Source: an uncultured bacterium (lineage in GTDB: Bacteria; Eisenbacteria; RBG-16-71-46). From it: DNA of 64,000 nt. This document shows positions 16,296 through 56,736 of this stretch, in pieces. The notes under the pieces were generated by a model. The model worked only from the letters and a program-made list of their open reading frames with translations. It had not been told where the DNA came from and did no database searches. Where the stretch lies: assembly GCA_964542745.1 (NCBI GenBank), contig CAZIVR010000007.1, positions 379 to 64,378 on the forward strand. The letters are read 5' to 3'. The translations under genes were made by a program, and so were the position numbers. Every line of letters starts with the position of its first letter. The first letter of the stretch is position 1.

Positions 16296-19106
16296 TTGGG
16301 CCCGATGAAGTTCCGCGCCGCGTCCCGAGTCCTGCTGGGGCTCGGCCTGTTCGCCCTGACGGCCGGTGCCGCCCTCGCCGAAGCGTCCGCGCATGGCTCG
16401 CTCGCGACGCCCGGGCTCCACCGGCCGCGACACGATCCCCTGCCGCCCTGGTCTCCGGAGCCTTTTCAGGGCGTGTGGTACGAGGCCGCCCACTCCCCGA
16501 GGCCGCAGGCCGCGGTCGTCTTCGACTCCCGCCGCGGGCGGCTGATCCAGTTCGGCGGCCTTTCCGGGGAGGCCTACCCCTGTGCCGCGCTGTGGTCGTT
16601 CGATCTCCGGCGAGGTGAGGGCTGGCAGCCGCTGGTGGCGCTGGGGCAGCCGCCGGCCCCCCGCACCGGCTCCGCGGCCGTCTACGACTCGGTGCAGGAC
16701 CGCGTGGTGTTGTTCGGCGGGTACCAGCGTGATTCCGGGATTCCCGCGTTCGACGACCTGTGGGAACTGCGGCTGGGCGGGCTTCCACGCTGGCGGCGGC
16801 TGGAGCCGGCGGGTGCTCGCCCCGGGCCGCGTTCCCGTGCGGGGGTCGCGCTGGATGCCCGCAGGCGGCGCATGATCGTCGTTGGCGGGGAGCGATGCGT
16901 CGGGTCCATTCTCGAGTACCACGGCATGGTCTTCGTGAACGATGCGTGGAGCCTCGATCTCGCGGGTGCGCCGGTCTGGACGCGGCTGGATCCCGTGGGG
17001 GACGGGCCCCCACCCACGGGTGGCCTCGCCGCGGCCTACGATTCCGGGAGGGACGCCGTCGTGCTGGCCGGTGGCCGCGGAGCGCTCGACGCGATGCGGC
17101 TCGTGTACCGGGACGAGGTGTGGATGTTGTGGCTCGGAGAGTCGACGCGCTGGGAGTTGCTCGGAGCGGCGTCGTTGGGAACCACGCCACCCCCGAATGG
17201 CGAGATGTCCCCGTCGCTCGTCCACGATCCCGCCACGGGGCGCGTGGTCCTCTTCTCCGGCCGCGACTCGATCACGCGCGCGTTCGTTCCCGGAAGCGAT
17301 CAGCCGTGGGTCACGCTCGGCGCTGGGGCTCCAGGGCCCGGCCAGTCGTTCGGCCAGGCGATGGTGCTGGACCGCGAGTCCCGCCAGATCGCGCTTACCG
17401 GAGTCTCCGGTTCCGATGCGCTATGGCGGCTCGGACTCACGCAGGGATCCGTCTGGAGTCGCGAGGCAGAGACGGGTCGCGGGCCGATCGCCACCCTGGA
17501 CTTCACGCTCACTTCCGATCCCGCGCGGGGCCGCGCGCTGCTGGTCGGGGGGACACGGTGGGTCCGCGAGGGCGGCAGGGATCGCACCAGGCCGGTGGAT
17601 GAAGTTTGGGAGTTCTCCCTCGAGGGGCGGCGCTGGAGCCGTCTCGAAGGAGTTCGACTCCCGAACGCCGGATTGGTGGGGCACCGCGCCGTGCTGGACC
17701 CCTCCCGGGATCGGCTGCTCCTCCTCGGAGGTCGCATTCCCGGTGTCTCCCCGGATTCCCTGATTCCGAATCCGTTCCTCTACGCGCTCTCGCTCTCGGA
17801 CGATCGAAGCTGGGGCGTGGAGCGGATCGAAGGTTGGCCGGACGACCTGAGCGATGCGCCGAGCGTGACCCACGATCCGATCGGCGACCGCCTGTTGATC
17901 CAGGGGGACGCGATGTTCGCGCGGCGCCCCACCCGCGTCTGGCAGCTCCCGCTCGCCGGCCGCTCGCGGCTGGAGCCGCTGGAGACGACCGGAGCCCCGC
18001 CCGCGGGCAGCTACGGAAGGGCGACGGTCTTCGATCCGGCGCGCCAGCGCATGATCGTCGAACAGGATCCCTACCAGACCGGCGCGGACGACAACGCTTC
18101 GCTGTGGGCGCTCTCGCTGGAGGGGACTCCCCGCTGGAGCCCGATCGCACCCGCCGGAACGCCGCCCCGGCCGACGATGCGCCAGCATTCCGCCTACGAC
18201 CCGGCCCGCGACCGGCTCGTGAGGTTCGGGGGCCGATGGACTCCCAACCACCGCACCTACCAGGCGGCCCCGGGAGTCTGGAGCCTCGCGCTCGCGACGG
18301 CCACGACCTGGGACTCCCTCGAGTTGCAGGGCCCCGAACCCGTGGAGGCGCGCGAGCCCACGATCGCGTTCGATCCCCGGCTTCGCCGCCTGTTGGTGGC
18401 GCGGGCCCGTCACCTCGCGCCCGTGGCCGACGCCTACGTGCTCGACTTCGAGCGGCCGATCCGGCGCGTCCGCGCGCTCGCCACGCGCGGCCACGGCCAC
18501 GCGATCCGGCGCGGGCCCGACGCGCCGGGAGCGGACGAGGTCGCGATTCTCTCCGAGCCGGCGTTCGACGCGACGCGCCTCGATCCCGGCGCCCTGACGC
18601 TCGACGGCGCCCCGGTGGAACGCGCCGCCGGACGATGGCGTGTCTGGACCGCGGATGCCGACGGCGATGGTCTCGGGGACCTCGTGTGCCGCTTCGCGCT
18701 CGGGGCGCGGCTGCTCCGCGAACCACGCCCGCGGCTCCTCGCCGGAGTGGACCCGGAAGGGTTTCCACTGCAGGCCGAGGTGGCGGTTCGGGAACGTCCC
18801 GATCGTGCCGCGGAGGAGCCGGAGCGCGAGGCGGATCACCTGGCGCCCGAGTTCCACGGCGCCGCACCCAATCCGTGGACCGGCGGAGACCTGCGCGTGC
18901 GCTTCGCGGTTGTCGCGGGAGAAGCTGCCGTTCTCGAACTGCTCGACCTCGCCGGCCGGCGGCTCCTGCGCCTCGAAGTCGGTGCGCGGCCGGGTTCGCA
19001 AGAGGTGGATCTCGCGGGATCGGCCGCCTTGCGCCCGGGACTCTATTGGGCGCGCCTGAGCCAGGCGGACCGATCGGTCACGATGCGTGTCGCGCGCCTT
19101 CGTTGA
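16296..19106 (+). CDS. Secreted Kelch-type beta-propeller protein (about 12 blades) with the shared C-terminal sorting-type domain
   Basis: Signal peptide (MKFRAASRVLLGLGLFALTAGAALA). Repeated Kelch-like blades (xAVYDSxxDRVVLFGG, HDPATGRVVLFSGR and similar). The C-terminal ~80 aa (PNPWTGG...LDLAGRRLLRLEV...GLYWARL...RVARLR) are homologous to the tails of the other cluster proteins. Confidence 0.7.
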   Translation: MGPMKFRAASRVLLGLGLFALTAGAALAEASAHGSLATPGLHRPRHDPLPPWSPEPFQGVWYEAAHSPRPQAAVVFDSRRGRLIQFGGLSGEAYPCAALWSFDLRRGEGWQPLVALGQPPAPRTGSAAVYDSVQDRVVLFGGYQRDSGIPAFDDLWELRLGGLPRWRRLEPAGARPGPRSRAGVALDARRRRMIVVGGERCVGSILEYHGMVFVNDAWSLDLAGAPVWTRLDPVGDGPPPTGGLAAAYDSGRDAVVLAGGRGALDAMRLVYRDEVWMLWLGESTRWELLGAASLGTTPPPNGEMSPSLVHDPATGRVVLFSGRDSITRAFVPGSDQPWVTLGAGAPGPGQSFGQAMVLDRESRQIALTGVSGSDALWRLGLTQGSVWSREAETGRGPIATLDFTLTSDPARGRALLVGGTRWVREGGRDRTRPVDEVWEFSLEGRRWSRLEGVRLPNAGLVGHRAVLDPSRDRLLLLGGRIPGVSPDSLIPNPFLYALSLSDDRSWGVERIEGWPDDLSDAPSVTHDPIGDRLLIQGDAMFARRPTRVWQLPLAGRSRLEPLETTGAPPAGSYGRATVFDPARQRMIVEQDPYQTGADDNASLWALSLEGTPRWSPIAPAGTPPRPTMRQHSAYDPARDRLVRFGGRWTPNHRTYQAAPGVWSLALATATTWDSLELQGPEPVEAREPTIAFDPRLRRLLVARARHLAPVADAYVLDFERPIRRVRALATRGHGHAIRRGPDAPGADEVAILSEPAFDATRLDPGALTLDGAPVERAAGRWRVWTADADGDGLGDLVCRFALGARLLREPRPRLLAGVDPEGFPLQAEVAVRERPDRAAEEPEREADHLAPEFHGAAPNPWTGGDLRVRFAVVAGEAAVLELLDLAGRRLLRLEVGARPGSQEVDLAGSAALRPGLYWARLSQADRSVTMRVARLR

Positions 19107-19116
19107 GCGCGGGGGT

Positions 19117-19136
19117 TCCGGGTCCGGAAGGACCCC
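19117..19136. terminator. GC hairpin (GGGTCC-GGAA-GGACCC, GNRA-type loop) between two convergent genes. Possible bidirectional terminator. There is no U-tract.
   Basis: An inverted repeat is visible in the sequence. Both flanking genes end here (16296..19106 on the plus strand, 19194..19688 on the minus strand). Confidence 0.3.
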
Positions 19137-19193
19137 GAGACAACGACGCGCGGCGAGGGTCGCCCCCCGCCGCGCGTCGCCGTTTCGTCTCGA

Positions 19194-19688
19194 CTACAGC
19201 TTGAAGTTCCAGCCGATCAGCAGCTTGAAGTCGTGCGCGTCGCCGAGGCCGAGCTTGCCCTCGACGAAGAAGCGGCTGCCGGTCTGGGTCGGCACGATCG
19301 CGCCGCCGATGATGGCGAGGCCCACGTCGGTGTCGGACACGTCGCGGGGCCCCACGTCAATGCTGATGTGCGTGAACGCCAGCCCCGCGCCCACGTAGGG
19401 ACGCCATGGCGAGTTCTGCACCCGGAAATGGTAGTGGATGTCGCCGTTGAGCCCGATGGTGGTGGCGTTGTCGCCGATGCCGATGTCCACGTTCGGGGTG
19501 AGGGTGAGATCCGGCGTGATGTTCCCGAGGTCGAGCTGCCCCCCGAAGATGAACTGGTCGGGACCGCTGCTGAAGCCGAAGCGGGGGCCCCAGGCGGTGG
19601 CGACCGGAGCCGTGCCTCCCGATTGGGCGAGCGCCGCGGCCGGCAGCGCCGCCACGAAAAGGGCGGCCATCCAGAATCGCTTGTTCAT
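19194..19688 (-). CDS. Small outer-membrane beta-barrel protein (porin-like, about 8 strands)
   Basis: Signal peptide MNKRFWMAALFVAALPAAALA. Amphipathic beta-strand pattern. C-terminal ...IGWNFKL. Confidence 0.65.
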   Translation of the reverse strand: MNKRFWMAALFVAALPAAALAQSGGTAPVATAWGPRFGFSSGPDQFIFGGQLDLGNITPDLTLTPNVDIGIGDNATTIGLNGDIHYHFRVQNSPWRPYVGAGLAFTHISIDVGPRDVSDTDVGLAIIGGAIVPTQTGSRFFVEGKLGLGDAHDFKLLIGWNFKL

Positions 19689-19857
19689 GAGTTTCCTTTC
19701 ATGCGGCCGGCATGGGAGCGGAGTGGAGAGGGGGCAGGATAAGGGGGCGTCGCGGGCCAAGGCAATCGGGGCCGGGGCCGTCCCTCGCGGCTCCGCGATC
19801 GGCTAGAGTTCCGCGTTCCCGCGTTCCGCAGGCCCCTTCCCCGGAGATCCCGACGTC

Positions 19858-33455: not shown

Positions 33456-33464
33456 GAGACGGCC

Positions 33465-35600: not shown

Positions 35601-35679
35601 ACGGAAGCCGCGGGCGGGCGAACCCCGCCGGGATCCCGGGCGGCGAACCCCCCGGGACCCGGCGAACGAAGGAGAAGCC

Positions 35680-36063: not shown

Positions 36064-36070
36064 GCCGGCG

Positions 36071-39902: not shown

Positions 39903-39992
39903 GGGCGCTCCCGATGGGCCAGCCGTGGCGAGGGAGCGCGCAGTCTATTCGCAGCGGTCCCAGCGCGCAACGTGGCCTGCCGATGTCGCTGT

Positions 39993-40037
39993 TGACCAAA
40001 AGGTCATCAGTCGAATACATTGTTGACCCAATGGTCA
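39993..40037. promoter_or_regulatory. Tandem palindromic operators TGACCAAAAGGTCA (39993-40006) and TGACCCAATGGTCA (40024-40037). The second overlaps the tetR start codon.
   Basis: Two TGACC-N4-GGTCA inverted repeats 31 bp apart, immediately 5' of a TetR-family gene. Confidence 0.6.
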
Positions 40038-40732: not shown

Positions 40733-41146
40733 TTGAGCGGCCCCCGGGGCTCGACTAGCATCGGGCGCGCGGCCGCGTTCCATGGAGGTACCCGTTTGAA
40801 GCTCGACAGGCTGAACGCCGGCGCGCTCGCGGTCGGCGCGTTGCTGCTGCTGGCGGGCGGCCCCTGGCTGGTTCGCCAGCTCGGTTCCCTGCCGCATCCG
40901 ACGGCCCTCGCGGCCCGCGGCGGCGAGCGGATCGTCACCCTCGAGGTGGGCGGGATGACCTGCGGTGCGTGCGAGAGCGCGGTCAAGGGCCAGCTCGCGA
41001 CCGTGGCGGGGGTGAGCGCGGTGGAGGTGCGGGCCCGCGAGCGGCGCGCCTTCGTGGTCTGCGCGCCCGGCGTCGCGGACACCGCCCTCACGGCCGCGGT
41101 GCGGCGGGCGGGAGGCGGGTTCGTGGCGGAGGTGGCGGCCCCCTGA
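40733..41146 (+). CDS. Heavy-metal-associated (HMA) domain protein with an N-terminal TM/signal anchor (MerP/CopZ-like)
   Basis: GMTCGACE metal-binding motif in a ferredoxin-like fold (VTLEVGGMTCGACESAVKGQLATVAGVSAVEV). Hydrophobic N-terminal segment. The start may be the TTG at about 40797. Confidence 0.6.
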   Translation: MSGPRGSTSIGRAAAFHGGTRLKLDRLNAGALAVGALLLLAGGPWLVRQLGSLPHPTALAARGGERIVTLEVGGMTCGACESAVKGQLATVAGVSAVEVRARERRAFVVCAPGVADTALTAAVRRAGGGFVAEVAAP

Positions 41147-44135: not shown

Positions 44136-44356
44136 CCGTTCCCACCAGGCCCCGCGCCGCGGCCAGGAAGAAACCGCGGCTCGAGCCCCGCACGCTCCGT
44201 CGCCCGGACGCGCCCCCCAGCGCCCGGGCGGCATCTTTTGGGCCGCGGGCCGCCCGGCACCCCGCGCGGGGCCCGGCACGCGGGGGCCGTCCCGCGCCCC
44301 GCCGCGCGAGAAAGCCCTCGCCCCGAACGCCGCGATCGGCGAGAATCTTCCGCGCC

Positions 44357-47167
44357 ATGCGCCGACTCCCCCCGCTCCTGCTCCTCGTGGCACTCCTGGC
44401 CGGAATCCTCGCCGCGCCGCGTCACCTGATCTCGCGCCCGCGCGGCGCGCTCGACGCCTCGGCCGACTTCACGCACTTCGAAAGCGGCCACGTCCGCCCC
44501 GCGACGCTCACGCCGTCCGGCGACCGGCTGCTCGTCGTGAACACGCCCGACAACCGGCTCAGCGTCTTCGACCTCACGGGCGGCGCGCCGGCGCGCATCG
44601 CGGACATCCCGGTCGGGATGGAGCCGGTCTCGGTGGCCGCCCGCGACGACAGCACGGCGTGGGTCGTGAACCATCTCTCGGACGACGTGAGCATCGTCAA
44701 CCTCAACACGCTCCACGTGCGGGCGGTGCTGCGCGTCGGGGACGAACCCGCCGACGTGGTGTTCGCGGGGTCCCACGCCTACGTGAGCGTGTCGCAGGAA
44801 GACGCGGTCAAGGTCTACGACGCGGCGACCCTCGCGCCCGTCGGATCGCCGATCGCGATCCAGGGGCGCATGCCCCGCGCGCTCGCGGTGAGCGCCGACG
44901 GCTCGCGCGTGTTCGCGGCCGTGTTCCACGCCGGCAACCGCACCTCGGTGCTGTCCTTCACCGAGGCCAACGATTCGCTGCCCGCGCCGAATCCCCCGCT
45001 CGGGCCCGGGGTGCCGCCGCCGCCCGACGTGGCGCTCATCGTGCAGCAGCAGGGGAACGACTGGCGCGACGAGGCGGGCAAGCTCTGGAACTCGAAGATC
45101 AAGTACACGCTCGCCGAGGTGGACGTCGCCGAGATCGCCACCGCCACGCGCACCGTGGTGGCGAGCCACCGCGACATGGGCACGGTCAACTTCGGGCTCG
45201 CGGCCGCGCCCGACGGGCGCCTCGCCCTCACCGCGACCGAGGCGCGCAACCTGGTGCGCTTCGAGCCCAACCAGCGCGGGCACACGGTGGACACCCGGCT
45301 CTCGATCGTGAGCGCCGGCGCCGTGACCAACAACGACCTCAATCCGCACGTGAACTACACGGTCACGCCGGGCCCCTCGGGCGAGGCCGACTCCTCGCTC
45401 GGAACACCGACCGGCGTGGCGTGGTCCTCGAACTCGCAGCGCGTCTACGTGACGTCGCTCGCGAGCGGGCGGCTCGGCGTGCTGTCGGCGCCCGCCGGGG
45501 GCGGCGCCACGATCCTCGCGCGGGTGCCCACGGCCGCGGGCCCGACCGGCGTGGTGGTGGACGACGCGCGCGGCCGGATCTACGTGGTGGGCCGTTTCCG
45601 CAACGAGCTGCAGACGCTGCGCAGCTCGAACTTCTCGGAGGTGGCGCGCGCGTGGATCGGGTTCGACCCCACGCCCGACGAGATCGTGAACGGCCGCAAG
45701 TTCTTCTACGGCGGCTTCACCTCGGGCCACGGCGAGCAGTCGTGCGCCTCGTGCCACGTGTTCGGCGACTTCGACAACATCGCGTGGGACCTCGGGGACC
45801 CGCAGGGCGCCTTCCAGCCCAGGCCCCCCGGGCAGATCGATCCCTTCCTCGGCGGCTTCCACCCCATGAAGGGCCCGATGACCACGCAGAGCCTGCGCGG
45901 GCTGCCGGGCACCTTCCTGCTCCACTGGCGCGGCGACCGCTCCGACCTGTTCGCGTTCAACGCCGCGTTCGTCGGGCTGATGGGCCGCTCGACGCAGCTC
46001 CCGGACAGCGAGATGACGGCGTTCGCGGACTTCGTGCTGCCGCTCGTCCACCCGCCCAACCCGAACCAGTTCCTCGACCGCGCGTTCCGCGACGCGCCGC
46101 CCGGCGTGCCGAGCGCCCGGCGCGGGCGGAGCTTCTACTTCAACAATCCCGTGGACGGCCCGCTCACCTGCAACGGCTGCCACGCCTCGCTCAACTTCGG
46201 GCCCGGCACCAACGGCCAGGTGATCAACCGCATCGCGCTGCGCGACTCGCAGGACATCAAGATCCCGCACGTCCGCAACATGTACCGGAAGACCGGCTTC
46301 ACCGACCTGCCGGGCGTGGTGAACAAGCGCGGCTTCGGCTTCACCCACGACGGGGCCATCGACAACCTCTTCAACTTCCTGAAATTCCCCGGCTTCGCGT
46401 TCGCCGCCGGGGCGACCGGCGACAACCAGCGCCGCGACGTCGAGGCGTTCCTGCTGTCGTTCGACACCGGGCTCGCCCCGGCGGTCGGCTACCAGATCGC
46501 CTTCACCGGCGGCTCGAGCAACACCGATCCCACCGCGATCGCGCGCCTCGACACGCTCAAGCGCTGCTTCGACTCGACGTGGGTGGACGTGGTGGCGCAC
46601 GGTCGCGTGAGCGGCCAGCCGCGCGGATGGAAGTACCTGGGCGGCGACCTGTGGCAGCCCGACAAGGCCGCCGCGCCGAGCGTCACCTCCGCGGCGCTGC
46701 GCGCGCTCGGCGGGCCGGGCAGCGAGGTGGTGGTGATGGGCGTGCCGCGCGGCGCCGGGACGCGCATGGGCGTGGATCGCGACCGCGACGGCTTCCGCGA
46801 CGGCGACGAGCGTGACGCGGGGAGCGATCCGGGCAATCCCGCCTCGACGCCGGCCAACGTCGGCGTGGATCCGCCGCGGGCGCTGCCCGGCGACTCGTTT
46901 GGATCGCTCGGCCCGAATCCGTTCCGCGCCTCGACCGCGGTCGCGTTCGCGCTGGCGAGGCCCGGTCCGGTGGACGCCGCGGTGTACGACGTGATGGGCC
47001 GCGAGGTTCGCGTGCTCGCCGGCGGACTCCGCCTCGAGGCGGGAACGCAGCGGCTGGTGTGGGACGGCCGCGACGCCGCCGGACGCGAGGCGGGCGCTGG
47101 GGTGTACTTCGTTCGGGTGCGGACTTCGACGGCCCACTGGGTGCGGCCGGTCGTGCGTGTGAAATGA
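44357..47167 (+). CDS. Paralogue B of the beta-propeller/di-haem peroxidase secreted protein, about 60% identical to A
   Basis: Signal peptide (MRRLPPLLLLVALLAGILAAP). Same architecture (CASCH...CNGCH, PHVRNM...GFGFTHDGA). C-terminal tail. This is the real 3' half of the 1934-aa track ORF 41363..47167. Confidence 0.75.
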   Translation: MRRLPPLLLLVALLAGILAAPRHLISRPRGALDASADFTHFESGHVRPATLTPSGDRLLVVNTPDNRLSVFDLTGGAPARIADIPVGMEPVSVAARDDSTAWVVNHLSDDVSIVNLNTLHVRAVLRVGDEPADVVFAGSHAYVSVSQEDAVKVYDAATLAPVGSPIAIQGRMPRALAVSADGSRVFAAVFHAGNRTSVLSFTEANDSLPAPNPPLGPGVPPPPDVALIVQQQGNDWRDEAGKLWNSKIKYTLAEVDVAEIATATRTVVASHRDMGTVNFGLAAAPDGRLALTATEARNLVRFEPNQRGHTVDTRLSIVSAGAVTNNDLNPHVNYTVTPGPSGEADSSLGTPTGVAWSSNSQRVYVTSLASGRLGVLSAPAGGGATILARVPTAAGPTGVVVDDARGRIYVVGRFRNELQTLRSSNFSEVARAWIGFDPTPDEIVNGRKFFYGGFTSGHGEQSCASCHVFGDFDNIAWDLGDPQGAFQPRPPGQIDPFLGGFHPMKGPMTTQSLRGLPGTFLLHWRGDRSDLFAFNAAFVGLMGRSTQLPDSEMTAFADFVLPLVHPPNPNQFLDRAFRDAPPGVPSARRGRSFYFNNPVDGPLTCNGCHASLNFGPGTNGQVINRIALRDSQDIKIPHVRNMYRKTGFTDLPGVVNKRGFGFTHDGAIDNLFNFLKFPGFAFAAGATGDNQRRDVEAFLLSFDTGLAPAVGYQIAFTGGSSNTDPTAIARLDTLKRCFDSTWVDVVAHGRVSGQPRGWKYLGGDLWQPDKAAAPSVTSAALRALGGPGSEVVVMGVPRGAGTRMGVDRDRDGFRDGDERDAGSDPGNPASTPANVGVDPPRALPGDSFGSLGPNPFRASTAVAFALARPGPVDAAVYDVMGREVRVLAGGLRLEAGTQRLVWDGRDAAGREAGAGVYFVRVRTSTAHWVRPVVRVK

Positions 47168-47212
47168 GTTCCGCGTGAAGTTCCTCCGGCCGCCCCGAAG
47201 CTCGAGCCCACC

Positions 47213-50200
47213 GTGATTCGCGCGCCGCGCCGTGCCGGGATCCTCGCCGCCGTCCTGCTGCTCACCGCTTCGGCCGCGCACGCGGGGCGCGGCGCGTTCG
47301 CCTCGGATCCGGCCGCGCCGCTCTGGAGTGCCCCCGGCGCCCCGGTCGCGGGACTCCCGGCCGGCGCCGCGTTCCCGGGCTCGCTCACCGGTGCCACGCC
47401 TTCCGCATGCGACGGCTGGCTGCCGAACCGCGGACAGATCGCGGACGGGCACGGGCAGGTGGCGAGGGACGTGCTCTTCGCCACCCGTTTCCCCGGCGGT
47501 CGCGTCTACCTCACCACGCGCGGGTTCACGCACCTGTTCACGTCGCGGGTGGGCGAGGAGGAGCCCAAGGTCGCGGGCCGCGAGCGGAAGCGGCCGCCCT
47601 CCCGGCTCGTGGAGTGGAGCCGGCTCGACCTCGAGCTGGTGGGCGCCACGATCCGTCCCGAGGCCGCCGTGCCGGGCCGGGTGCGGGCCGACCGCGGCGT
47701 GTCGCACTTCTACCTGCCGCACTGCCCGGACGGTGTCCTCGACGTTCCTTCCTACGGCGAGGTGGTGCTGCGCGAGGTGTATCCGGGCGTGGACTGGGTG
47801 GTGCGGGGCGACGCGGAGACCGGCGCGCACCACGACTTCGTGGTGAAGCCGGGCGGCGACCCCGCGCGGATCCGCTTCGAGATCTCGGGCGCCACCGCGA
47901 TCGAGCTCTCGCCCGACGGCCGCGGGCTCACGCTTCGCACCGCGCTCGGCGACGTGCGCGAAGGGGCGCTGCTCTGCACCCAGGGCGAGGGGAAGCGGCC
48001 GGTGGCGGCGCGCTTCCGGCTCGAGGGCCGCACGCTGTCGTTCGACGTCGGCGACTACGACCGCGCCGAGCCGCTGGTGATCGACCCGCCGATGGTGTGG
48101 TCCACCTATTTCGGCGGCGAGGACTTCGACGGCCCCAACACCGTCGTCTGCGACAACGCCTCGGGCTCCGTGTACGTGGTCGGCTACACCGCCTCCGACA
48201 CGCTCCAGACGCTGGCGGGCGGTTACTACCAGGGCGTGATGGGCGGCTCGGTGGACGGCCTGATCCTCAAGTTCAGCCAGCTCGGGGCGCTGCAGTGGGC
48301 CACGTACTACGGAGGCGGCGGCGGGGACTACTGCACCGACGCCGCGCTCGATCCTTCCGGCAACCTGTTCGTTTCGGGAGGGACGGGATCGAGCAACTTC
48401 CCGGTGCAGTTCCTCTCGGGCGCCTACAACCAGCTCACCACCGGCGGCGGGCAGGACGGGTTCTTCCTCAAGTTCAACTCGCTGGGCGCGCGGCAGTGGG
48501 CCACGTACTACGGCGGGAGCGGCGACGACCAGGCCAACGGGATCGCGTGCGATCCGAACGGCAAGCTCTACGCGTGCGGGCAGGCCATGTCCACCGACCT
48601 GCCGCTCCAGAACCCGGGCGGGGGCGCCTTCATGGACCTCACGCGCGGCGGCAGCGAGGACGCCTTCGTGGCGCGCTTCGGCACGCTGCACTCGCTCGAG
48701 TGGGCCACCTACGTGGGCGGGGACTCGCTCGAGAACGCGGCGGGGATCACCGTGAACGCGGGCCGGCTCTACGTGACCGGCTACACGTGGTCCCCGGACT
48801 TCCCGCTGCTCGACCCGCTGGGCGGCGCCTACTTCCAGCCCACGCTCGCCAGCGGCCAGGACGCCTTCTTCACCCAGTTCACGCCGGCCGGCGTGCTCAC
48901 CTGGTCCACCTTCTACGGCGGGGACGACCTCGACACCGCCAACGACCCGGTGATCCTGCCGAACGGCAACGTGACGATCCTCGGCTTCAGCAAGTCCACC
49001 GATCTCCCCACCTGGTTCCTCGGGGGCGCCTACAACGTCGCGGCGCTCTCGGGCGGGTTCGACCTCTACCTCGCCGAGTTCACGCCGGGCGGCGTCCCGG
49101 TGTGGGGCACCTACTTCGGGGGCAGCGGCGACGACTGGCTGATCCGCGGCGAGGGCAAGCCGATCACCGTGAGCGCCGCGGGCGAGGTGGTGATCACCGG
49201 CGTCACCGCGTCGAGCGACTTTCCCACGCTGAACCCGGGCGGCGCCTACTTCGACAACACGTGGGGGGGCGGAACGGACGCGATCCTCGCCCGCTTCCTG
49301 CCGACGCGCGCGCTCTCGTGGTCCACCTACCTCGGCACCACCTCCACCGACTTCGGCAACGGCGTGGCCTTCGGCACCGGCGGCTGCCTGTTCGCGACCG
49401 GCGAGTCGTGGGAGTACGGGTCGTTCCCGATCGTGAATCCCGGGCTCGGCGCGCTGGTGGACTCCACCAACCACGGCATCGACGACATCTACGTCACCAA
49501 GTTCTGCACCCCGAATTCGGCGTGCTGCCAGGACTTCACCTGCGTGCCGGCGCTGTCGCAGGCGCACTGCTTCAGCATGGGCGGCACCGCGTTCTATCCC
49601 AACCAGCCCTGCGCGAACGTGTCGTGCACGATCCTGTGCACGATCTGCGGGAAGAAATTCCACGACCTGAACCGGAACGGCGTGCAGGACTCGGGCGAAC
49701 CCGCGCTCGCGGGCTGGACCCTCGAGCTCTACTACCCGAACGGGCCGCTCTACGCGACCACGGTCACCGACGGCTCGGGCAACTACTGCTTCAGCGCGAT
49801 CCCGTGCGGCACGTGGGAGGTGCGCGAGCGCAACCAGTCCGGCTGGGTCGCGACCGCCCCGGCCGGCGGTGTCCACAGCGTCACGCTCGGCACCGGCTCC
49901 ACCCAGAACGGCGTCAACTTCGCCAACTTCGGATGCGCGCCCTCCACGCCCTGCATCCCGTCCCCCTCGTGGCTCGCGGCGTGGTGGCCGCTCGGCGACG
50001 GCCCGGGCTCATCCGTGGCGGCCGACGCCGCGCACCTCGATCCGGCCCGGAACGTGGCGCAGCTCGAGGGCGGGGCGTCGCTCGACTCGACGTCGCTCGG
50101 CGTCGCGACCGCGGCCGACGGCGCGCGCGTGCCGCACGCGGGCCAGCTCGGCCTCGACTTCGGCGACGGATCGTTCTCGATCGCCGCGTGGCTCCGGGCC

Positions 50201-51682
50201 GAGGCGGGTACCGCGAGCCCTCGCGTGGTCGCCGCGCGTCGCGCGCTCGACGGCGGCACGGGCACCGTGAAGGGCTGGGCGATCGCGCTCGACGGGATGC
50301 AGGCGGTGCTCGACCTGCACGCCGGCGGCTCGGCCCAGTCGGCGCCGGGTCCGGACGTGGCGGCGGGGACGTGGTCGCACGTCGCGGTCACCCTCGACCG
50401 CGCCGCGGGCCAGGGCCGCTGGTACCTGGACGGCGTCCACGTTCCGTCCTTCGACTTCACGCCGCTCGCGGGCGACGTCACCGCCGCGGCCGACCTGACC
50501 CTCGGCCGCAACGACCCGGGCTACGCCCCGAGCGCGGGCTTCGACGGGAGGATCGGCGACCTGGCGCTCTTCACCGCCGCGCTCTCGAGCGCCGACGTGG
50601 CGAAGGCCGCGGGTCCCGGGCTCCCGCCGATCGGGTTCTGCCCCGAGTACGTGGCGTTCCCCGCCGTGACCACGATCTGCCAGGGCCAGACCTCGAGGCA
50701 GGTTTGCTTCACGATCTGCAACTCGAACCCGACCGCCCAGACCTACCAGTGGTCGCTCGCGGGGCTCCCCTCGGGCGCCGGCTGCACCGACGCGGGGCCG
50801 CTCAGCTTCAGCCCCGCCTCGGGCAGCGTCACGGTGCCCGCCGGGGGCTGCTCGACGCCGATCTGCGTCACGATCCAGCGGCCCGCCGGCTTCACCGCCC
50901 AGAACGCGACCTCGTGCTTCGCGTTCACGTTCCTGAACGCGGCGACCGGGCGCTGCCAGACGCGCACCGGGAAGCTGCGCGTGGACAACAGCTGCTGGTG
51001 CGCCACACCGCCGGCCGCGGTGACCAACGTGGCGGCGCGGATCCCGGCCGGGACCGCGATCGGGATCGGGCTCGGCCACCCGTGCGACCCGCCCGCGACG
51101 CTCGCCTACCGGCTCACCCCCGAGTGGCTCGACCCGGAACACCCGGACCCCGTGGCGCTCAGCCTCAATGGCCTGCCGCCCGGCATGCCGGTCACCGGCG
51201 AGATCACGCTCGGTTCGGGATCGCCGGGCCAGGTGGACGTGGTGGCGCGCTACCCGAAGGGCTACGACCCCTTCGCGCTCTACGAGATCGTGCTCGAGGC
51301 CGACACCGACGGCGACGGCATTCCCGAACGGCTGGCCGGCGCGGTGGTGCGCCCCGCGTACGATTCGGTCGCGAGCACCGCGGTGCCCTCGGGCCCCGGC
51401 GTCGCGGCGCCGGCGTCGCTGCGCGCGAGCCCCAACCCGTTCTTCGCGCGGGCCAGCGTCGAGCTGGTGCTGCCGCGGGGCGGCGACGCCGAGGTGACGG
51501 TCTTCGACCTGGGCGGCCGCCGGGTGCGCACGCTGGCGCGCGGGAGCTTCGAGCCGGGCGAACACCGGCTGGCCTGGAACGGCCACGACGACGCGGGCCG
51601 CCGGGTTCCCGCCGGAATTTATTTCCTGCGCGCCGTCGCCGATGGGCGTAGGCTCGAGGCGAAGCTGGTGAAGTTGAGATGA
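47213..51682 (+). CDS. Giant secreted multidomain protein. Order: N-terminal domain, SBBP beta-propeller repeats, SdrD-B/CarboxypepD_reg-like Ig domain, LamG/concanavalin-like domain, further Ig-like domain, shared C-terminal sorting-type domain.
   Basis: Signal peptide. At least eight SBBP-type repeats (W.TY.GG.GDD...G...D..GN.YV.G.T.S.DFP). Ig-like CTICGKKFHDLNRNGVQDSGEPALAGWTLELY. LamG-like DGSFSIAAWLR...GRWYLDGVHV...GRIGDLALF. C-terminal tail SPNPFFARASV...VFDLGGRRVRTL...WNGHDDAGRRVPAGIYFLRA...KLR. Confidence 0.7.
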   Translation: MIRAPRRAGILAAVLLLTASAAHAGRGAFASDPAAPLWSAPGAPVAGLPAGAAFPGSLTGATPSACDGWLPNRGQIADGHGQVARDVLFATRFPGGRVYLTTRGFTHLFTSRVGEEEPKVAGRERKRPPSRLVEWSRLDLELVGATIRPEAAVPGRVRADRGVSHFYLPHCPDGVLDVPSYGEVVLREVYPGVDWVVRGDAETGAHHDFVVKPGGDPARIRFEISGATAIELSPDGRGLTLRTALGDVREGALLCTQGEGKRPVAARFRLEGRTLSFDVGDYDRAEPLVIDPPMVWSTYFGGEDFDGPNTVVCDNASGSVYVVGYTASDTLQTLAGGYYQGVMGGSVDGLILKFSQLGALQWATYYGGGGGDYCTDAALDPSGNLFVSGGTGSSNFPVQFLSGAYNQLTTGGGQDGFFLKFNSLGARQWATYYGGSGDDQANGIACDPNGKLYACGQAMSTDLPLQNPGGGAFMDLTRGGSEDAFVARFGTLHSLEWATYVGGDSLENAAGITVNAGRLYVTGYTWSPDFPLLDPLGGAYFQPTLASGQDAFFTQFTPAGVLTWSTFYGGDDLDTANDPVILPNGNVTILGFSKSTDLPTWFLGGAYNVAALSGGFDLYLAEFTPGGVPVWGTYFGGSGDDWLIRGEGKPITVSAAGEVVITGVTASSDFPTLNPGGAYFDNTWGGGTDAILARFLPTRALSWSTYLGTTSTDFGNGVAFGTGGCLFATGESWEYGSFPIVNPGLGALVDSTNHGIDDIYVTKFCTPNSACCQDFTCVPALSQAHCFSMGGTAFYPNQPCANVSCTILCTICGKKFHDLNRNGVQDSGEPALAGWTLELYYPNGPLYATTVTDGSGNYCFSAIPCGTWEVRERNQSGWVATAPAGGVHSVTLGTGSTQNGVNFANFGCAPSTPCIPSPSWLAAWWPLGDGPGSSVAADAAHLDPARNVAQLEGGASLDSTSLGVATAADGARVPHAGQLGLDFGDGSFSIAAWLRAEAGTASPRVVAARRALDGGTGTVKGWAIALDGMQAVLDLHAGGSAQSAPGPDVAAGTWSHVAVTLDRAAGQGRWYLDGVHVPSFDFTPLAGDVTAAADLTLGRNDPGYAPSAGFDGRIGDLALFTAALSSADVAKAAGPGLPPIGFCPEYVAFPAVTTICQGQTSRQVCFTICNSNPTAQTYQWSLAGLPSGAGCTDAGPLSFSPASGSVTVPAGGCSTPICVTIQRPAGFTAQNATSCFAFTFLNAATGRCQTRTGKLRVDNSCWCATPPAAVTNVAARIPAGTAIGIGLGHPCDPPATLAYRLTPEWLDPEHPDPVALSLNGLPPGMPVTGEITLGSGSPGQVDVVARYPKGYDPFALYEIVLEADTDGDGIPERLAGAVVRPAYDSVASTAVPSGPGVAAPASLRASPNPFFARASVELVLPRGGDAEVTVFDLGGRRVRTLARGSFEPGEHRLAWNGHDDAGRRVPAGIYFLRAVADGRRLEAKLVKLR

Positions 51683-51711
51683 CCGGGAGGCCCTGAGTCG
51701 GGAGGCGTCCC

Positions 51712-52962
51712 ATGAAACGCACGATGCTCGCGCCCACGATGCTCGCGCTCGCAGCCCTCGTTGCGGCGGCGGGCTGCCGCCGCCCCTTCGCGCCCGAGGG
51801 CGAGCGCGCGGCCCGCGGGGCCAACGGCGAAGCGGCCCGCAGCGCCGCCGCCCGCGGATGGATGGCGTGGCTCCGCTTCTCGGGGGCCACGGTGTCGCTC
51901 GACCGGAACCTCGAGCCGCGGCCCGACAGGCCCGGCTGGACGGACGTGCTCGCGCCGGGCCCCGAGGGCGCGCCGCCCGACACGGTGCCCGCGTTCGCCC
52001 GGCTCGAGTGGGTCCGCTGGAGGCCCGCGGCCGCGGGCCGCTCGGAGCCGCCGGCGGCCGGGCGCGCCGGGCGCGGCGAAGGCGACGACCCGCACGCCCG
52101 CGAGCCCGGGCCGGCGTTCGCGCCGGGCCACCACGAAATGGTGCTGACGGCGCCGGCCCACGCGGGCGGCGGCACCGTCACCGCACGCTTCTTCTCCGGT
52201 TTCGTGCCGGGCGTGTGGTGGGCCGGGCCCGACCCCGACCGCTGGCCGGCCGCGAGCGACGGCGACGGGCGCGCGGTGGACGTCACCGACTGGGCGAGCC
52301 TCGCCACCGTGCCGGCGTGGCCCCCGGACGGGCGCGCCACCTTCGGCGCCGACTCGTTCCGCGTGATCCCCTCGCGGCGGGCTCCGGTGGGAGGGAACTT
52401 CGACCGGCGCACCTTCTACGAGATCCACGGCAACCGCATCTACGCCCGCGAAGAGAACGACACCGTGCACCGGGGAGCGTGGATCGTGGTGAGCCTCGGC
52501 GGCTACGACCGGGACTCACCGTATTCGCCGCTGGTTGACCCGCTCGATCCCGCCCTGCCGGCCGGCTACGCGGCCGATCCGGGGCGCTACCCCGTGCTGA
52601 ACCCGGCCGGCCTCGAGGGCTCCCCGATCGGGTTCCGGGTTCGCGTCTCGATCAAGCTCCCCGACGGCCGGATCGTGCGGCTGCCCGCGGGGCCCACGTT
52701 CCCGAACTTCGATCCCACGTCGGTCTTCCGCCAGCCCCAGGTGCTGGGCTACTGGCCGGCCCAGCTCGAGGGCCGCGCCTACGTCGAGGTGCGCGCGGTG
52801 GACGCGCACGGGCTGCTCTCGCCGGCGCTGCCGGACCCGGTCGCACTCGCGGACCGCGTGGACGCGGGCGGCGGAACTCCCCGCGAACGGCTGGAGCGGC
52901 GCCGCATCCTCACCTTCCGGATCGCCGCGCCCGCCCAGGCGAGGACGGTCGCGGCGAACTGA
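51712..52962 (+). CDS. Hypothetical lipoprotein encoded immediately after the giant secreted protein
   Basis: Signal peptide with lipobox (LAALVAAAGCRRP). Non-biased composition in the C-terminal two thirds. Confidence 0.45.
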   Translation: MKRTMLAPTMLALAALVAAAGCRRPFAPEGERAARGANGEAARSAAARGWMAWLRFSGATVSLDRNLEPRPDRPGWTDVLAPGPEGAPPDTVPAFARLEWVRWRPAAAGRSEPPAAGRAGRGEGDDPHAREPGPAFAPGHHEMVLTAPAHAGGGTVTARFFSGFVPGVWWAGPDPDRWPAASDGDGRAVDVTDWASLATVPAWPPDGRATFGADSFRVIPSRRAPVGGNFDRRTFYEIHGNRIYAREENDTVHRGAWIVVSLGGYDRDSPYSPLVDPLDPALPAGYAADPGRYPVLNPAGLEGSPIGFRVRVSIKLPDGRIVRLPAGPTFPNFDPTSVFRQPQVLGYWPAQLEGRAYVEVRAVDAHGLLSPALPDPVALADRVDAGGGTPRERLERRRILTFRIAAPAQARTVAAN

Positions 52963-53006
52963 GCGGACCCCCCGGCGCGCGGCCCGGGGGCGGACAGGAG
53001 CTGTGC

Positions 53007-54791
53007 GTGAGTCACATCGTGTCCAGGTGCTGGCGACTCGTGCCGACTGCGGCACTGGGCGTAGCCGTCGCGATGGTCCACTTTGTCGCAGCTGCGCTCG
53101 CGTTGCCGACAGGACGAGCGTGGACCCCAATGGACACGACGAAAGTTCCCGGCCACACCCGGGTCTATCCTAGCCGGCTGGACTTGGACCCCGGCGGCTT
53201 GCCGCTGGTGTTCGCTTCGGGAGTCGGAGGAATCGGCTACGACGAGCACGTACTTCGCTGGAATGACTCGGCATGGCTCGTCGTGCAGCAGCTTGGGTAC
53301 CTGACTTCGCCGCTTCACACGGTGGTCTCCACGGAGAACGTAACGTCGCTAGTGTGGCAGACATATGACCGGATCGCCCTGCCCGGCGTGCCCTACCTGG
53401 CTTGCTATCTCGTGTCCGCCGAGTTCGTGGACGATCGCTACTCCAAGTTGGACACGATCAGTACCGTGTTCAGTGGGAACTTCGTTTACTCCGCCGCGAC
53501 CTCCGCGCGTAGGCGCTGGGCGGTCAAGAGCGATGGCCCCTATCGGATGCGCGCGTGGTACTCAGACACTGCGAAGGTCTGGCACGGGGTGTTTCTGCCC
53601 GGCGGAGGGGGTTACGGGGCGGCGGTGGCGGCGATAGACGACACGTCAGCGCTCGTGACCTGGCTCGACTTCGGAGCTCCGATCCGGTGGGGGATCCTCC
53701 GGGGGAGCGTGTGGGAGGACGGGGGGATCGTTCCAGGCAATGTCTTTCCACTCGCCCAGTTTCCCCACTTCCGCCGCAGCCCGAGCGGGACACTGTGGAT
53801 GGCGTGGTCCACGGATCGTGAGTTCATTCAGTACACGACCTACCGCAACGGCGCCTGGGCGCTTCCCGAGTCGCTGAGTGCGCCCAAGCCGACGGCCGGC
53901 AGATGGGTATCCAAGGAACTCCGCCCGAGCCGCGACCGGTGGGAGTTGCCGGTGATCACGTGGGTTGAGCACAACGCATCGAGGGGCTATCTCGGCACGG
54001 TGTGCGTGAGCGTGCCGACGGAGACGGGCCATCCGCCCGGCGAGAACCTCGCCGGCACCGACGACGCGATCTTCGCCGAGTCGGTGCGCGACAGCCTGGG
54101 CGACGTGTGGCTGGTGTGGCGATCGTCCAACAACGGCATGTTCTGGACGCACAGCTACGTGAGGGCCACCGCCACGAAGCCGCGCCTCACGCACCACGGC
54201 CGGCGCCGCACGCTTTCGTGGACGCTCTCCGAACCCGCCCCCGGCTCGTGGTGGACGGTGCTGCGCTCGCGCGGCGATGGGCCATTCGAGGAAGCCGCGC
54301 AGGTGCAGGCGGGCGAAGGGCTCGACGTGTCGTGGGCCGACGACTCGCGTTTGCGCGGCGGGCGAGGCGCCGCGCTCGTCGCGGACGACGAGACCGACCA
54401 CGGCCGTAGTCGCGCCCACGTCCGCTACAAGGTGCGCCGCGACTGCCTCGACACGCGCTACCAGTGGGAGAGCGAGGAAGTCTCGTGGCCGCCGCGGGTG
54501 GCGCACGATCCACCCCGGCACCAGCCGCGCCTCAAGCCGCCGCTCCGGCCGTGGCGCGGGGACGCGATGCTCGAGGTCGCCGACGCGGCCCCGGGAGCGG
54601 TGCAAGTAGCGCTCTACGACCTGCAGGGACGCGAGGTGATGTCGGAGCGCGTGGAGCGTTCGGCCGAAGGGGGCATCCGGTTCCCGCTCGATCGAGCCCG
54701 CGAGCCGCTCCGCGCGGGCGTCTACTTCGCCCGGGTGCGCGATGCCTCGGGCGCCTGGTCCGGGGCGGTGCGGGCGGTGGTGCTGAGGTAA
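53007..54791 (+). CDS. Secreted hypothetical protein with the shared C-terminal sorting-type domain (paralogue C). Lower-GC N-terminal part.
   Basis: Signal-like N-terminus. About 55-62% GC over the 5' 1.1 kb, against about 72% elsewhere. The last about 200 aa are near-identical to paralogue D. Tail ...VALYDLQGREVMS...GVYFARV...VVLR. Confidence 0.6.
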   Translation: MSHIVSRCWRLVPTAALGVAVAMVHFVAAALALPTGRAWTPMDTTKVPGHTRVYPSRLDLDPGGLPLVFASGVGGIGYDEHVLRWNDSAWLVVQQLGYLTSPLHTVVSTENVTSLVWQTYDRIALPGVPYLACYLVSAEFVDDRYSKLDTISTVFSGNFVYSAATSARRRWAVKSDGPYRMRAWYSDTAKVWHGVFLPGGGGYGAAVAAIDDTSALVTWLDFGAPIRWGILRGSVWEDGGIVPGNVFPLAQFPHFRRSPSGTLWMAWSTDREFIQYTTYRNGAWALPESLSAPKPTAGRWVSKELRPSRDRWELPVITWVEHNASRGYLGTVCVSVPTETGHPPGENLAGTDDAIFAESVRDSLGDVWLVWRSSNNGMFWTHSYVRATATKPRLTHHGRRRTLSWTLSEPAPGSWWTVLRSRGDGPFEEAAQVQAGEGLDVSWADDSRLRGGRGAALVADDETDHGRSRAHVRYKVRRDCLDTRYQWESEEVSWPPRVAHDPPRHQPRLKPPLRPWRGDAMLEVADAAPGAVQVALYDLQGREVMSERVERSAEGGIRFPLDRAREPLRAGVYFARVRDASGAWSGAVRAVVLR

Positions 54792-54972
54792 GGGGGCGTC
54801 GGTCAACGGCCCCATGAGCTCTCCACTCCCTGCGCCGGAGGTATTCGAGCCCTGCAGGCCGTGATTTCAGGGCGTGACAGGGGCCCGGCTGCGGCTCATG
54901 CTGATTGGCACCCCGCCATTGGCGCGGCTTGAACGCAGCCCGGACGCCGTACCCGTATCGAGCATTTCCTTG

Positions 54973-56736
54973 ATGGTCAAGAAATCGCCCGCTCCGCTCA
55001 TCGTGCTCCTCGGCCTCCTCGAGGCGACGGTTTGTCTGGCATTGCCGCAGGGCAAGGCATGGGTCCCCACAGTACCGATTGAGTTGCCGGGTTTCGTCTA
55101 CCTTGGGCCCCCTCGTTTCGATTGGAACGGGAAGATGCTCTACCTCCAGACGATGCCTCGCAGGGACTTCGGTGGGGACGCACGGGGGTTCCTCTGGTCG
55201 GATTCAACGTGGGTGGAGACGTGGCGTCTCGGCTATCCCACCCTGATCTTCTGGCCGGTAATCTCGCCCAACATCGCCGAGACTTACCTCGTGTGGGGCG
55301 GGGCGAGCGCGAGCACGGCGGGGACCTACCAACTGGCGCAGTTGCTGGGCAACGAGCTATCCCCCCCCGACACCATCGCCCGCGTGGCCGTCGGCAGAAC
55401 GGAATACGCCGCCGCCGTGGCGGAGCGCCGCCGGTGGTTCGTGGTTCACGATCGAATCCCGAATCCCGGTGGCGTGGGCTCGACCGACGCCCTGAGAATC
55501 TTTTACTCCGATACCGCGAAGGCCTGGCGCGAAGCTCCCATCGCTGGCAGCGCCGGCTTTGGCGTGACCATCGCGCCGTTGGACGACACGACGGCCGTCG
55601 TGGTCTGGGCGAGCAGCAGGTATCCGGAGAAACTTCAATGGGGCCTGCTGCGCGGCCGGGAATGGATCCCTCGAGGGTTGCTGAGCGACGAGGGGTTTCC
55701 GATCCGCCCGCGATTCCGCCGCCGCCCGGGCGGAGGCTACTGGCTGAGCTGGGGAACCGAAGGCCCCGACGTGATGCTCTCCTCCTTCGTCGGGGGCGTC
55801 TGGTCCCCGCCGCTACGAATCACGGCGGACTACGTCGTCGAGCCGCACAACCAGCACTTCGCCGAGGACACTGACATGAGCCGCGACGAGGCGGAATACC
55901 CGGTCGTTGCCTGGGACACGCAGTCTCCGTTCTCGGGTGGCGAGATCGCGGTGAGCTTTCCTCTCGCGGGCGGCTACTCGCTGGGTGAGGTTGTGCCGGG
56001 TTCTGGCGTGGGCGTCCTTCCGTCGGTCGCGCGAGATCTCAATGGCGACACCTGGATCGCATGGTGGCGAGAGTTCGGCCCCACCCGCTGGACCCACACG
56101 TACACGCGCGCCACAGCGGCGGACATTCGCCTGAAGTCCGGGCGCAAGGGCCGGACAGTGACGTGGACGCTCTCCGAACCCGCCCCCGGCTCGTGGTGGA
56201 CGGTGCTGCGCTCGCGCGGCGATGGGCCATTCGAGGAAGCCGCGCAGGTGCAGGCGGGCGAAGGGCTCGACGTGTCGTGGACCGACGACTCGCGTACGCG
56301 CGGCGGGCGTGGCGACGCGCTCGTCGCGGACGACGAAACCGACCACGGCCGCGGTCGCGCCCACGTCCGCTACAAGGTCCGCCGCGACTGCCTCGACACG
56401 CGCTACCAGTGGCAGAGCGAGGAGGTCTCGTGGCCACCGCGGGTGGCGAACGACCCGCCGCGGCACCAGCCGCGCCTCAAGCCGCCGCTCCGGCCGTGGC
56501 GCGGGGACGCGCTGCTCGAGGTCGCCGACGCGGCCCCGGGAGCGGTGCAAGTAGCGCTCTACGACCTGCAGGGGCGCGAGGTGATGTCGGAGCGCGTGGA
56601 GCGCTCGGGCGAGGGGGGTCTCCAGTTCCCGCTCGATCGGGCCCGCGAGCCGCTCCGCGCGGGCGTCTACTTCGCGCGGGTGCGCGACGCCTCCGGCGCG
56701 TGGTCCGGGGCAGTGCGGGCGGTGGTGCTGAGGTAG
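54973..56736 (+). CDS. Paralogue D of 53007..54791, with the same near-identical 3' end
   Basis: Signal peptide MVKKSPAPLIVLLGLLEATVCLA (the track ORF starts at 54874). The N-terminal domain has diverged (for example WYSDTAKVWHG versus FYSDTAKAWREA). The 3' ~600 nt are almost identical to 54190..54791. Confidence 0.6.
   Translation: MVKKSPAPLIVLLGLLEATVCLALPQGKAWVPTVPIELPGFVYLGPPRFDWNGKMLYLQTMPRRDFGGDARGFLWSDSTWVETWRLGYPTLIFWPVISPNIAETYLVWGGASASTAGTYQLAQLLGNELSPPDTIARVAVGRTEYAAAVAERRRWFVVHDRIPNPGGVGSTDALRIFYSDTAKAWREAPIAGSAGFGVTIAPLDDTTAVVVWASSRYPEKLQWGLLRGREWIPRGLLSDEGFPIRPRFRRRPGGGYWLSWGTEGPDVMLSSFVGGVWSPPLRITADYVVEPHNQHFAEDTDMSRDEAEYPVVAWDTQSPFSGGEIAVSFPLAGGYSLGEVVPGSGVGVLPSVARDLNGDTWIAWWREFGPTRWTHTYTRATAADIRLKSGRKGRTVTWTLSEPAPGSWWTVLRSRGDGPFEEAAQVQAGEGLDVSWTDDSRTRGGRGDALVADDETDHGRGRAHVRYKVRRDCLDTRYQWQSEEVSWPPRVANDPPRHQPRLKPPLRPWRGDALLEVADAAPGAVQVALYDLQGREVMSERVERSGEGGLQFPLDRAREPLRAGVYFARVRDASGAWSGAVRAVVLR

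Follow-up and report, generated by a model that had tools for sequence, protein, structure and literature searches.

Six proteins of the window share a C-terminal domain

We analysed a window of 64 kb (64,000 nucleotides; the whole stretch of contig CAZIVR010000007.1 under study) from an uncultured bacterium of the Eisenbacteria, in which six open reading frames (ORFs) end in a homologous C-terminal domain of ∼81–87 aa, referred to here as the tail. The G+C content of the window is 73%, a composition at which long spurious ORFs are common, and real genes were told from their shadows by codon-position G+C and Pfam matches. The tail-bearing proteins, and a lipoprotein-like gene that lies among them, are listed below (GC3 is the G+C content at third codon positions).

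16305..19106, + strand: Kelch-repeat protein, 933 aa; Pfam Kelch_KLHDC2_KLHL20_DRC7 at 2.6e-38; GC3 0.843 against a median of 0.966
41322..44135, + strand: protein A, 937 aa; signal peptide, lactonase/YVTN-like β-propeller, two CxxCH haem motifs, tail
44357..47167, + strand: protein B, 936 aa; paralogue of A (57% identity), two CxxCH motifs, tail
47213..51682, + strand: protein C, 1489 aa; signal peptide, DUF7948, SBBP β-propeller repeats, SdrD_B, Laminin_G_3, tail
51712..52962, + strand: lipoprotein-like gene inside the array of tail genes, 416 aa; ...VAAAGC lipobox, no tail, no Pfam or NCBIfam family match
53007..54791, + strand: protein E, 594 aa from GTG 53007 (ATG 53073 possible); GC3 0.845; the tail is its only family match
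54973..56736, + strand: protein F, 587 aa from ATG 54973; paralogue of E (52% identity), tail

The Kelch ORF opens at a TTG (16296), with the ATG at 16305 as the likelier start, and the N-terminus of the protein is signal-peptide-like (MKFRAASRVLLGLGLFALTAGAALA). Read from the sequence, all six N-termini show a basic n-region and then a hydrophobic stretch, 10 residues or longer (Kyte-Doolittle 2.3–3.2), with Ala-x-Ala-type sites beyond this stretch in the Kelch protein, C and E. Ahead of the tail the proteins fall into four unrelated cargo families, comprising the Kelch protein, the di-haem β-propellers A and B, the DUF7948/SBBP/SdrD_B/Laminin_G_3 protein C, and the unassigned family of E and F. 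These assignments bear out the cargo descriptions in an earlier note on this DNA, which had named a Kelch protein, two di-haem paralogues, a giant SBBP protein and two paralogues of lower G+C content. An AlphaFold2 (AF2) model of the cargo of E, built from a two-sequence alignment, had a predicted local distance difference test (pLDDT) score of 43.9 and was unusable.

To survey the tail we used an external profile of 92 sequences, all from outside the window, searched against 654 six-frame segments of the window. It picked out exactly six ORF ends at E-values of 5e-38 to 2e-11, with the next segment at 0.04. With leave-one-group-out profiles, each omitted tail was regained at E-values of 7e-7 to 4e-21, the next segment scoring at least 0.2. 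Pairwise BLAST joined unrelated cargo proteins by the tail alone (A to C at 8e-15, B to E at 1e-8, E to the Kelch protein at 4e-3). The similarity of the tails is far above chance and is not driven by composition. The tails are as follows.

18855..19103, + strand: tail of the Kelch protein, 83 aa; short variant with PNPW and without the WDG insert, ends VARLR; external profile E-value 7.8e-13; TIGR04183 20.1 bits, E-value 4.6e-4
43872..44132, + strand: tail of A, 87 aa; FlgD_ig-type; PF13860 27.9 bits; TIGR04183 23.1 bits; external profile E-value 5.3e-38
46904..47164, + strand: tail of B, 87 aa; FlgD_ig-type; PF13860 27.7 bits; TIGR04183 22.6 bits; external profile E-value 1.5e-35
51422..51679, + strand: tail of C, 86 aa; FlgD_ig-type, ends AKLVKLR; PF13860 36.4 bits; TIGR04183 20.7 bits; the tail that was modelled
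54546..54788, + strand: tail of E, 81 aa; short variant with RPW for PNPF, ends AVVLR; external profile E-value 1.3e-11; TIGR04183 21.1 bits
56491..56733, + strand: tail of F, 81 aa; short variant; external profile E-value 2e-11; TIGR04183 21.1 bits

Each protein carries one copy, and the profile match ends 0–6 residues from the last residue in all six. Seven copies of a shared domain of ∼80 aa had been claimed in the earlier note. The length holds and six copies are confirmed, but the seventh was not found in any of the six frames, where a window-built profile gave nothing better than an E-value of ∼1 and the external profile nothing better than 0.04. Neither profile finds a tail in the lipoprotein-like gene.

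Two forms of the tail and their conserved motifs

The tails occur in two forms, a long FlgD-like form (A, B and C) and a short form (Kelch, E and F). The sequence pattern written for them in the earlier note, PNPF...W(D/N)G..D..GR...GVYF, is present in full in A, B and C only; the Kelch tail has PNPW, the E and F tails have RPW, and the W(D/N)G-x-D-x-x-GR segment is missing from all three. Eight columns are invariant across the six tails: P6, D29, G32, R33, G46, G65, Y67 and R70, in the numbering of the C tail.

Several of the conserved motifs have counterparts in the C-terminal domains (CTDs) that direct cargo through a type IX secretion system (T9SS). All six tails keep the D, G and R of (F/Y/L)-D-x-x-G-R-x-(V/L) unchanged, and the (F/Y/L)-D-x-x-G-R part aligns with the loop F695-D-M-N-G-R-R701 of RgpB, whose secretion is blocked by deletion of this loop or by the substitution G699R (PMC11285876). 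The last strand of the tails is basic (VVRVR, VVRVK, LVKLR, VARLR, VVLR), with Arg replacing Lys at most positions, and corresponds to the conserved Lys of strand β7, or motif E, of T9SS CTDs. That lysine is also required, as reported in the two papers from which the CTD motif definitions are taken (PMC11285876, PMC10202324). The functionally essential loop and last strand are conserved in the tails, and so are the motifs by which CTDs make contact with PorV and PorM in Porphyromonas.

The genes also differ in composition. GC3 is 0.84–0.85 for Kelch, E and F and 0.956–0.963 for A, B and C, where the other called genes have a median of 0.966 and go no lower than 0.905. The GC3 outliers are exactly the short-tail genes, and their low GC3 may reflect a foreign origin or a different expression class.

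The genes for E and F share a 3′ tract of nearly identical DNA, which was delimited by sliding identity on a MAFFT alignment.

54222..54791 and 56167..56736, + strand: shared 3′ tract of E and F, ∼570 nt, 91–100% identical, a direct repeat with 1945 nt spacing

The tract spans the tail and ∼110 codons upstream of it. The rest of the two genes is ∼45–55% identical and the identity falls again past the stop codons, so that the tract looks like a recent gene-conversion or recombination event homogenising the 3′ ends.

Family models, homologues and predicted fold

The immunoglobulin (Ig)-like domain model of FlgD, PF13860 (FlgD_ig; gathering threshold 27 bits), is passed by A, B and C (27.9, 27.7 and 36.4 bits), and the Kelch, E and F tails gave no match to it at an E-value of 0.1 or below. 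The T9SS model TIGR04183 (Por_Secre_tail; cut-off 23 bits) matches all six tails, at E-values of 5.5e-5 to 4.6e-4 and 20.1–23.1 bits, with only A reaching the cut-off. Both models named in the earlier note are thus matched by tails of the window. The PorU model NF033707 also finds A, B and C, through its C-terminal CTD part. Of the FlgD equivalog models only the Ig part is matched, at 14–28 bits against cut-offs of 230–383, and the Pfam and NCBIfam results for the tail proteins contain no match to the type B CTD (TIGR04131 / PF13585), PEP-CTERM, LPXTG, MYXO-CTERM or GlyGly-CTERM models.

Homologues in a collection of 5.8 billion proteins carry PF13860, often with PF18962 over the same stretch, and, where a source gives them a name, are called ‘T9SS type A sorting domain-containing protein’ or ‘FlgD immunoglobulin-like domain containing protein [Candidatus Eisenbacteria]’. 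The tail is thus a known kind of element, which automatic annotation already labels in this way in Eisenbacteria metagenome-assembled genomes (MAGs), and our finding of it repeats that annotation.

An AF2 model was made of the C tail only, from a 98-sequence alignment. It is a seven-strand Ig-like β-sandwich with a pLDDT of 97.5, comprising six DSSP strands of at least three residues and a short N-terminal strand. Foldseek searches with this model returned the T9SS CTDs of PorU (6za2, query TM-score 0.79), PorZ (5m11, 0.67), NucA in the translocon (8glk_D, 0.61), mirolase (8qb1, 0.60) and RgpB (7pq4), with FlgD Ig domains (PDB 3osv, 3c12, 7eh9 and 7bhq among the FlgD structures) as close as the T9SS CTDs. 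A sequence-profile search of the PDB with the tail family gave FlgD at 1.6e-11, followed by the CTDs of PorU (1.1e-6), PorZ (7.8e-5) and RgpB (1e-4). The FlgD_ig/T9SS-CTD fold is among the most widely reused Ig modules of bacteria.

Related loci, lineage and a C25 peptidase family

We collected 84 related loci (80 metagenome and four genome loci), picked solely by a tail match, the metagenome loci in a scan with a three-sequence tail alignment; L numbers below are our labels for loci of relatives. They encode 136 tail proteins, 133 of them with the stop codon inside the locus. The tail lies within five residues of the stop codon in 125 of these 133, and two copies were present in only one protein. 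Two to five tail genes per 20 kb are common, and tails of the same family in these loci clear the TIGR04183 cut-off at 24.0–34.6 bits.

The contig is of Eisenbacteria origin. Its TldD (minus strand, 38463-39902) shares 83% identity with a ‘Candidatus Eisenbacteria bacterium’ protein and 78% with an ‘Eiseniibacteriota bacterium’ protein. Ten proteins of the window are singletons or near-singletons in the public protein collection, where protein B is present as an exact sequence. For one tail-bearing protein, a scan of a genome collection gave relatives of only 43–44% identity, from a Krumholzibacteriia MAG and one further MAG. The Eisenbacteria have been analysed as the closest relatives of Joyebacterota, a phylum of the Fibrobacteres–Chlorobi–Bacteroidetes (FCB) superphylum (PMC13271369).

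Tail proteins of PorU size from the related loci were scanned against the PorU model NF033707, which has a cut-off of 420 bits. One family combines Propeptide_C25, Peptidase_C25 and a terminal FlgD_ig tail in 1132–1138 aa, and occurs in several Candidatus Eisenbacteria MAGs at 55–56% identity. The C25 peptidase loci in relatives are:

L062, 1597-5034
L041, 1886-5737
L085, 10001-13414
L086, 10001-13399

The C25 neighbourhood is syntenic, with TonB_C, NTP_transferase and ABC-F genes in L085 and L062 and a Sigma70_r2/r4, DUF6249 and zf-HC2 trio in L085 and L086; in one Eisenbacteria MAG a second C25 gene follows the first. Directly upstream of the peptidase (L085 8526-9743; L062 126-1388) lies a conserved exported protein of 405–420 aa, rich in Asp, Gly, Trp and Tyr and ending in SW..(V/I)KA(L/F)YR, for which Pfam, NCBIfam and the PDB gave no match and whose sequence does not resemble PorV. 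The C25 family is a weak candidate for a PorU-like enzyme, and could instead be a gingipain-like cargo protease.

Comparison with known sorting elements

The closest comparison is with the type A CTDs of T9SS cargo and components, such as RgpB, HBP35, PorZ and PorU of P. gingivalis, mirolase of T. forsythia and NucA of F. johnsoniae. Like these, the tails of the window stand at the extreme C-terminus after a linker, on diverse cargo with signal peptides, and are Ig-like β-sandwiches of ∼80 residues. They share the P-x-P motif of the first strand, the D-x-x-G-(R/K) of the β3–β4 loop, the G-x-Y strand and the basic last strand; they match TIGR04183 at E-values no higher than 5e-4, and their homologues bear the T9SS type A name. 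They differ in that only one of the six reaches the curated cut-off, that A, B and C have the additional W(D/N)G-x-D-x-x-GR typical of FlgD_ig, and that Arg takes the place of the canonical last-strand Lys. The host, moreover, is represented by an Eisenbacteria MAG and is not a member of the Bacteroidota, and the window holds no machinery.

With the Ig domain of FlgD the tails share the V-x-V-x-D-x-x-G-R-x-V and W-D-G-x-D-x-x-G-x-x-x-x-x-G-x-Y motifs, and A, B and C exceed the gathering score of PF13860, whereas Kelch, E and F remain under it. In FlgD, however, which is a flagellar type III substrate, the domain lies inside the protein; in the window proteins it is terminal, on non-flagellar cargo with Sec signal peptides and with no other region of FlgD. 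The window proteins share a domain with FlgD but are not FlgD themselves.

The C25 protein of relatives resembles PorU (NF033707) in being a C25 peptidase of similar size with its own terminal tail. It is unlike PorU in scoring 64–73 bits where the cut-off is 420, and in having no adjacent PorV; its gene is not in the window. Type B CTDs and short C-terminal tags are likewise C-terminal sorting elements of exported proteins. The short tags (PEP-CTERM, LPXTG, MYXO-CTERM and GlyGly-CTERM) consist of a motif, a transmembrane helix and a basic cluster, unlike the 80-residue β-sandwich of the tails. Type B CTD genes are paired in Flavobacterium with PorP/SprF genes, none of which lies in the window.

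The tail as a probable type IX sorting domain

We read the six tails as C-terminal sorting domains of a type IX secretion pathway, belonging to the type A CTD family in an FlgD-Ig-like form, and put the probability of this reading at about three in four. Among uncultured phyla that are relatives of the FCB superphylum, this form of the type A CTD is common. We infer that the organism has a working T9SS, with the tails as its signal, and that they are cleaved. The cargo would be exported to the periplasm by Sec through its N-terminal signal peptide, and an outer-membrane translocon with a carrier protein would then recognise the folded C-terminal β-sandwich; in Flavobacterium and Porphyromonas these components are SprA/Sov with PorV. 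After the cargo had crossed the outer membrane, a C25-family PorU-like sortase would cut the tail and link the cargo to the cell surface, or the cargo would be released.

A number of observations weigh against a T9SS role. Five of the six tails score below the curated TIGR04183 cut-off, PF18962 appears on A alone (15 bits against a gathering threshold of 27), and the top sequence and fold matches are to the Ig domain of the FlgD hook cap rather than to T9SS CTDs. The domain belongs to a huge family of 514,039 cluster representatives (50%-identity clusters) at an E-value of 1e-3 or below, whose top-scoring members are giant proteins with 4–25 tandem internal copies. Pfam and NCBIfam searches of every gene in the 64-kb window, including three small outer-membrane barrels, found no T9SS core or accessory gene, in agreement with the earlier note as regards the core genes. 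About 10 exported-looking proteins from related high-GC loci included no T9SS component, with only a weak PorG-like and an OmpA/PorE-like match. Two C25 tail proteins of related loci match only the catalytic part of NF033707, at 64 and 73 bits against the cut-off of 420; no T9SS component lies beside the C25 genes, and there is no PorV Pfam match within 10 kb in two Eisenbacteria MAGs. The related loci sampled for machinery amount to ∼0.7 Mb of scattered sequence, and these negatives cover too little sequence to weigh against a T9SS. As for the lineage, the literature confines the T9SS to Bacteroidota or to the FCB superphylum, and the NCBI taxonomy puts Eiseniibacteriota under ‘Bacteria candidate phyla’, in no superphylum. 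A literature search on Eisenbacteria with type IX or T9SS found no report of a T9SS there.

Alternatively, the tail would be only a general-purpose FlgD_ig Ig module for adhesion, spacing or self-association, carrying no secretion signal, on proteins exported by another route. The best PDB matches are FlgD Ig domains, the Foldseek matches include the fibril-forming C-terminal domain of Bacillus Vpr (8jmw), and both the size of the family and the sub-threshold TIGR04183 scores fit such a module. Since the top family members have 4–25 internal copies, the fold is indeed also a general Ig module, and the fold alone is no proof of a sorting role. We argue for that role from the terminal single-copy context and the conserved motifs: a purely structural module would have no reason for a terminal place or a basic last strand, yet the tail is single and ends no more than five residues from the stop codon in 125 of 133 related proteins. 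In the window it is always accompanied by a signal peptide, is attached to unrelated cargo, and keeps the motifs of loop and last strand on which T9SS export depends. On this evidence we regard the structural-module explanation as unlikely. That the resemblance is a by-product of high G+C content (ORF ends rich in Ala, Arg, Gly and Val) or of spurious ORFs has a probability close to nil. Such ORFs abound in this window, but hundreds of its other G+C-rich six-frame segments score an E-value of 0.04 or worse, the GC3 of the six ORFs is of the coding type, they carry independent Pfam domains, and the C tail is modelled with high confidence. The composition artefact was rejected because window-built and external profile searches both single out the six ORF ends.

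The tail could also be the sorting signal of a pathway unlike the canonical T9SS of Bacteroidota, with a lineage-specific translocon and carrier and the conserved C25 peptidase as its processing enzyme. The lack of literature reports would fit, as would the tail being nearer to FlgD_ig than to PF18962. The tail-bearing C25 family falls far under the PorU equivalog cut-off and has no PorV gene beside it, unlike Porphyromonas, where porU and porV are paired. The absence of evidence from ∼0.7 Mb of scattered loci is, however, weak; the tails retain the motifs by which CTDs of Porphyromonas contact PorV and PorM, and source databases already name such proteins T9SS type A. SprA, moreover, is reported as FCB-specific and absent only from Chlorobiota within that superphylum (PMC12611786). 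We consider a divergent pathway quite improbable. Equally doubtful is a fuller version of it, in which an FlgD-Ig tail would work with a non-Bacteroidota secretion and attachment apparatus and the C25 protein of ∼1135 aa as processor, the long form of the tail being used on genes of native composition and the short form on genes of atypical GC3.

With the tail as a marker, the surface and secreted proteins of a phylum that is uncultured and poorly described can readily be listed. Those of the window include the Kelch and SBBP β-propeller proteins, and a di-haem propeller pair linked to a metal-handling gene. Should the machinery prove to be present genome-wide, the use of a T9SS in Eisenbacteria, which is not described in the literature we found, would be documented; complete genomes rich in tails and without the machinery would instead make the tail an indicator of an undescribed export route.

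Gene array and neighbourhood

Five of the six tail genes (A, B, C, E and F) lie in a single co-directional array, composed as follows.

39914-40723: TetR
40796-41146: HMA-domain protein
41322 to 56736: A, B, C, the lipoprotein-like gene, E and F
56840-59233: P-type ATPase

In other Eisenbacteria MAGs the TldD/PmbA pair likewise precedes an HMA gene, with one or two proteins of A/B type (936–940 aa, FlgD_ig tail) behind it. This arrangement of HMA gene and di-haem propeller with tail beside TldD/PmbA is kept in at least three other Eisenbacteria assemblies (L087 1-3106; L088 and L089 11-9813), whose TldD/PmbA–HMA loci show no counterparts of C, the lipoprotein-like gene, E or F. The earlier note had called the locus a surface-protein island. 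The clustering of five tail genes in one array supports this description, but because other Eisenbacteria MAGs conserve the A/B-type pair beside the HMA gene, A and B are core genes linked to a metal-binding gene and not a recent insertion. A functional tie of the A and B proteins to metal handling is possible.

No flagellar genes were found within the window. The window also contains a porin–cytochrome module of four genes (32535-36769):

32535-33455: MtrA-like periplasmic decahaem protein, 10 CxxCH motifs
33465-35600: MtrB/PioB outer-membrane barrel, Pfam 7.9e-76
35680-36063: mono-haem cytochrome c
36071-36769: NapC/NirT-like membrane cytochrome

The module suggests extracellular electron transfer in the host organism. 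In related Eisenbacteria contigs (L087, L088) the slot between the nitroreductase/Mut7-C genes and PmbA/TldD is filled by unrelated genes, so the module is variable cargo.

The Kelch-tail gene is followed by a gene for a small outer-membrane β-barrel (19197-19760, minus strand) and one for a protein with PDZ and aspartyl-protease domains (19858-21735). The same pair follows a tail gene in a related metagenome contig of 72% G+C (L016 2350-4277), with 49% and 47% identity. At 10141-12007, the window has a divergently arranged trio of an ECF (extracytoplasmic function) sigma factor, a DUF6249 protein and an anti-sigma factor. Two Eisenbacteria MAGs have a similar trio close to their C25 peptidase locus (L085 1-1674; L086 651-2574), and the trios of the window and of the C25 loci may be paralogous regulatory modules.

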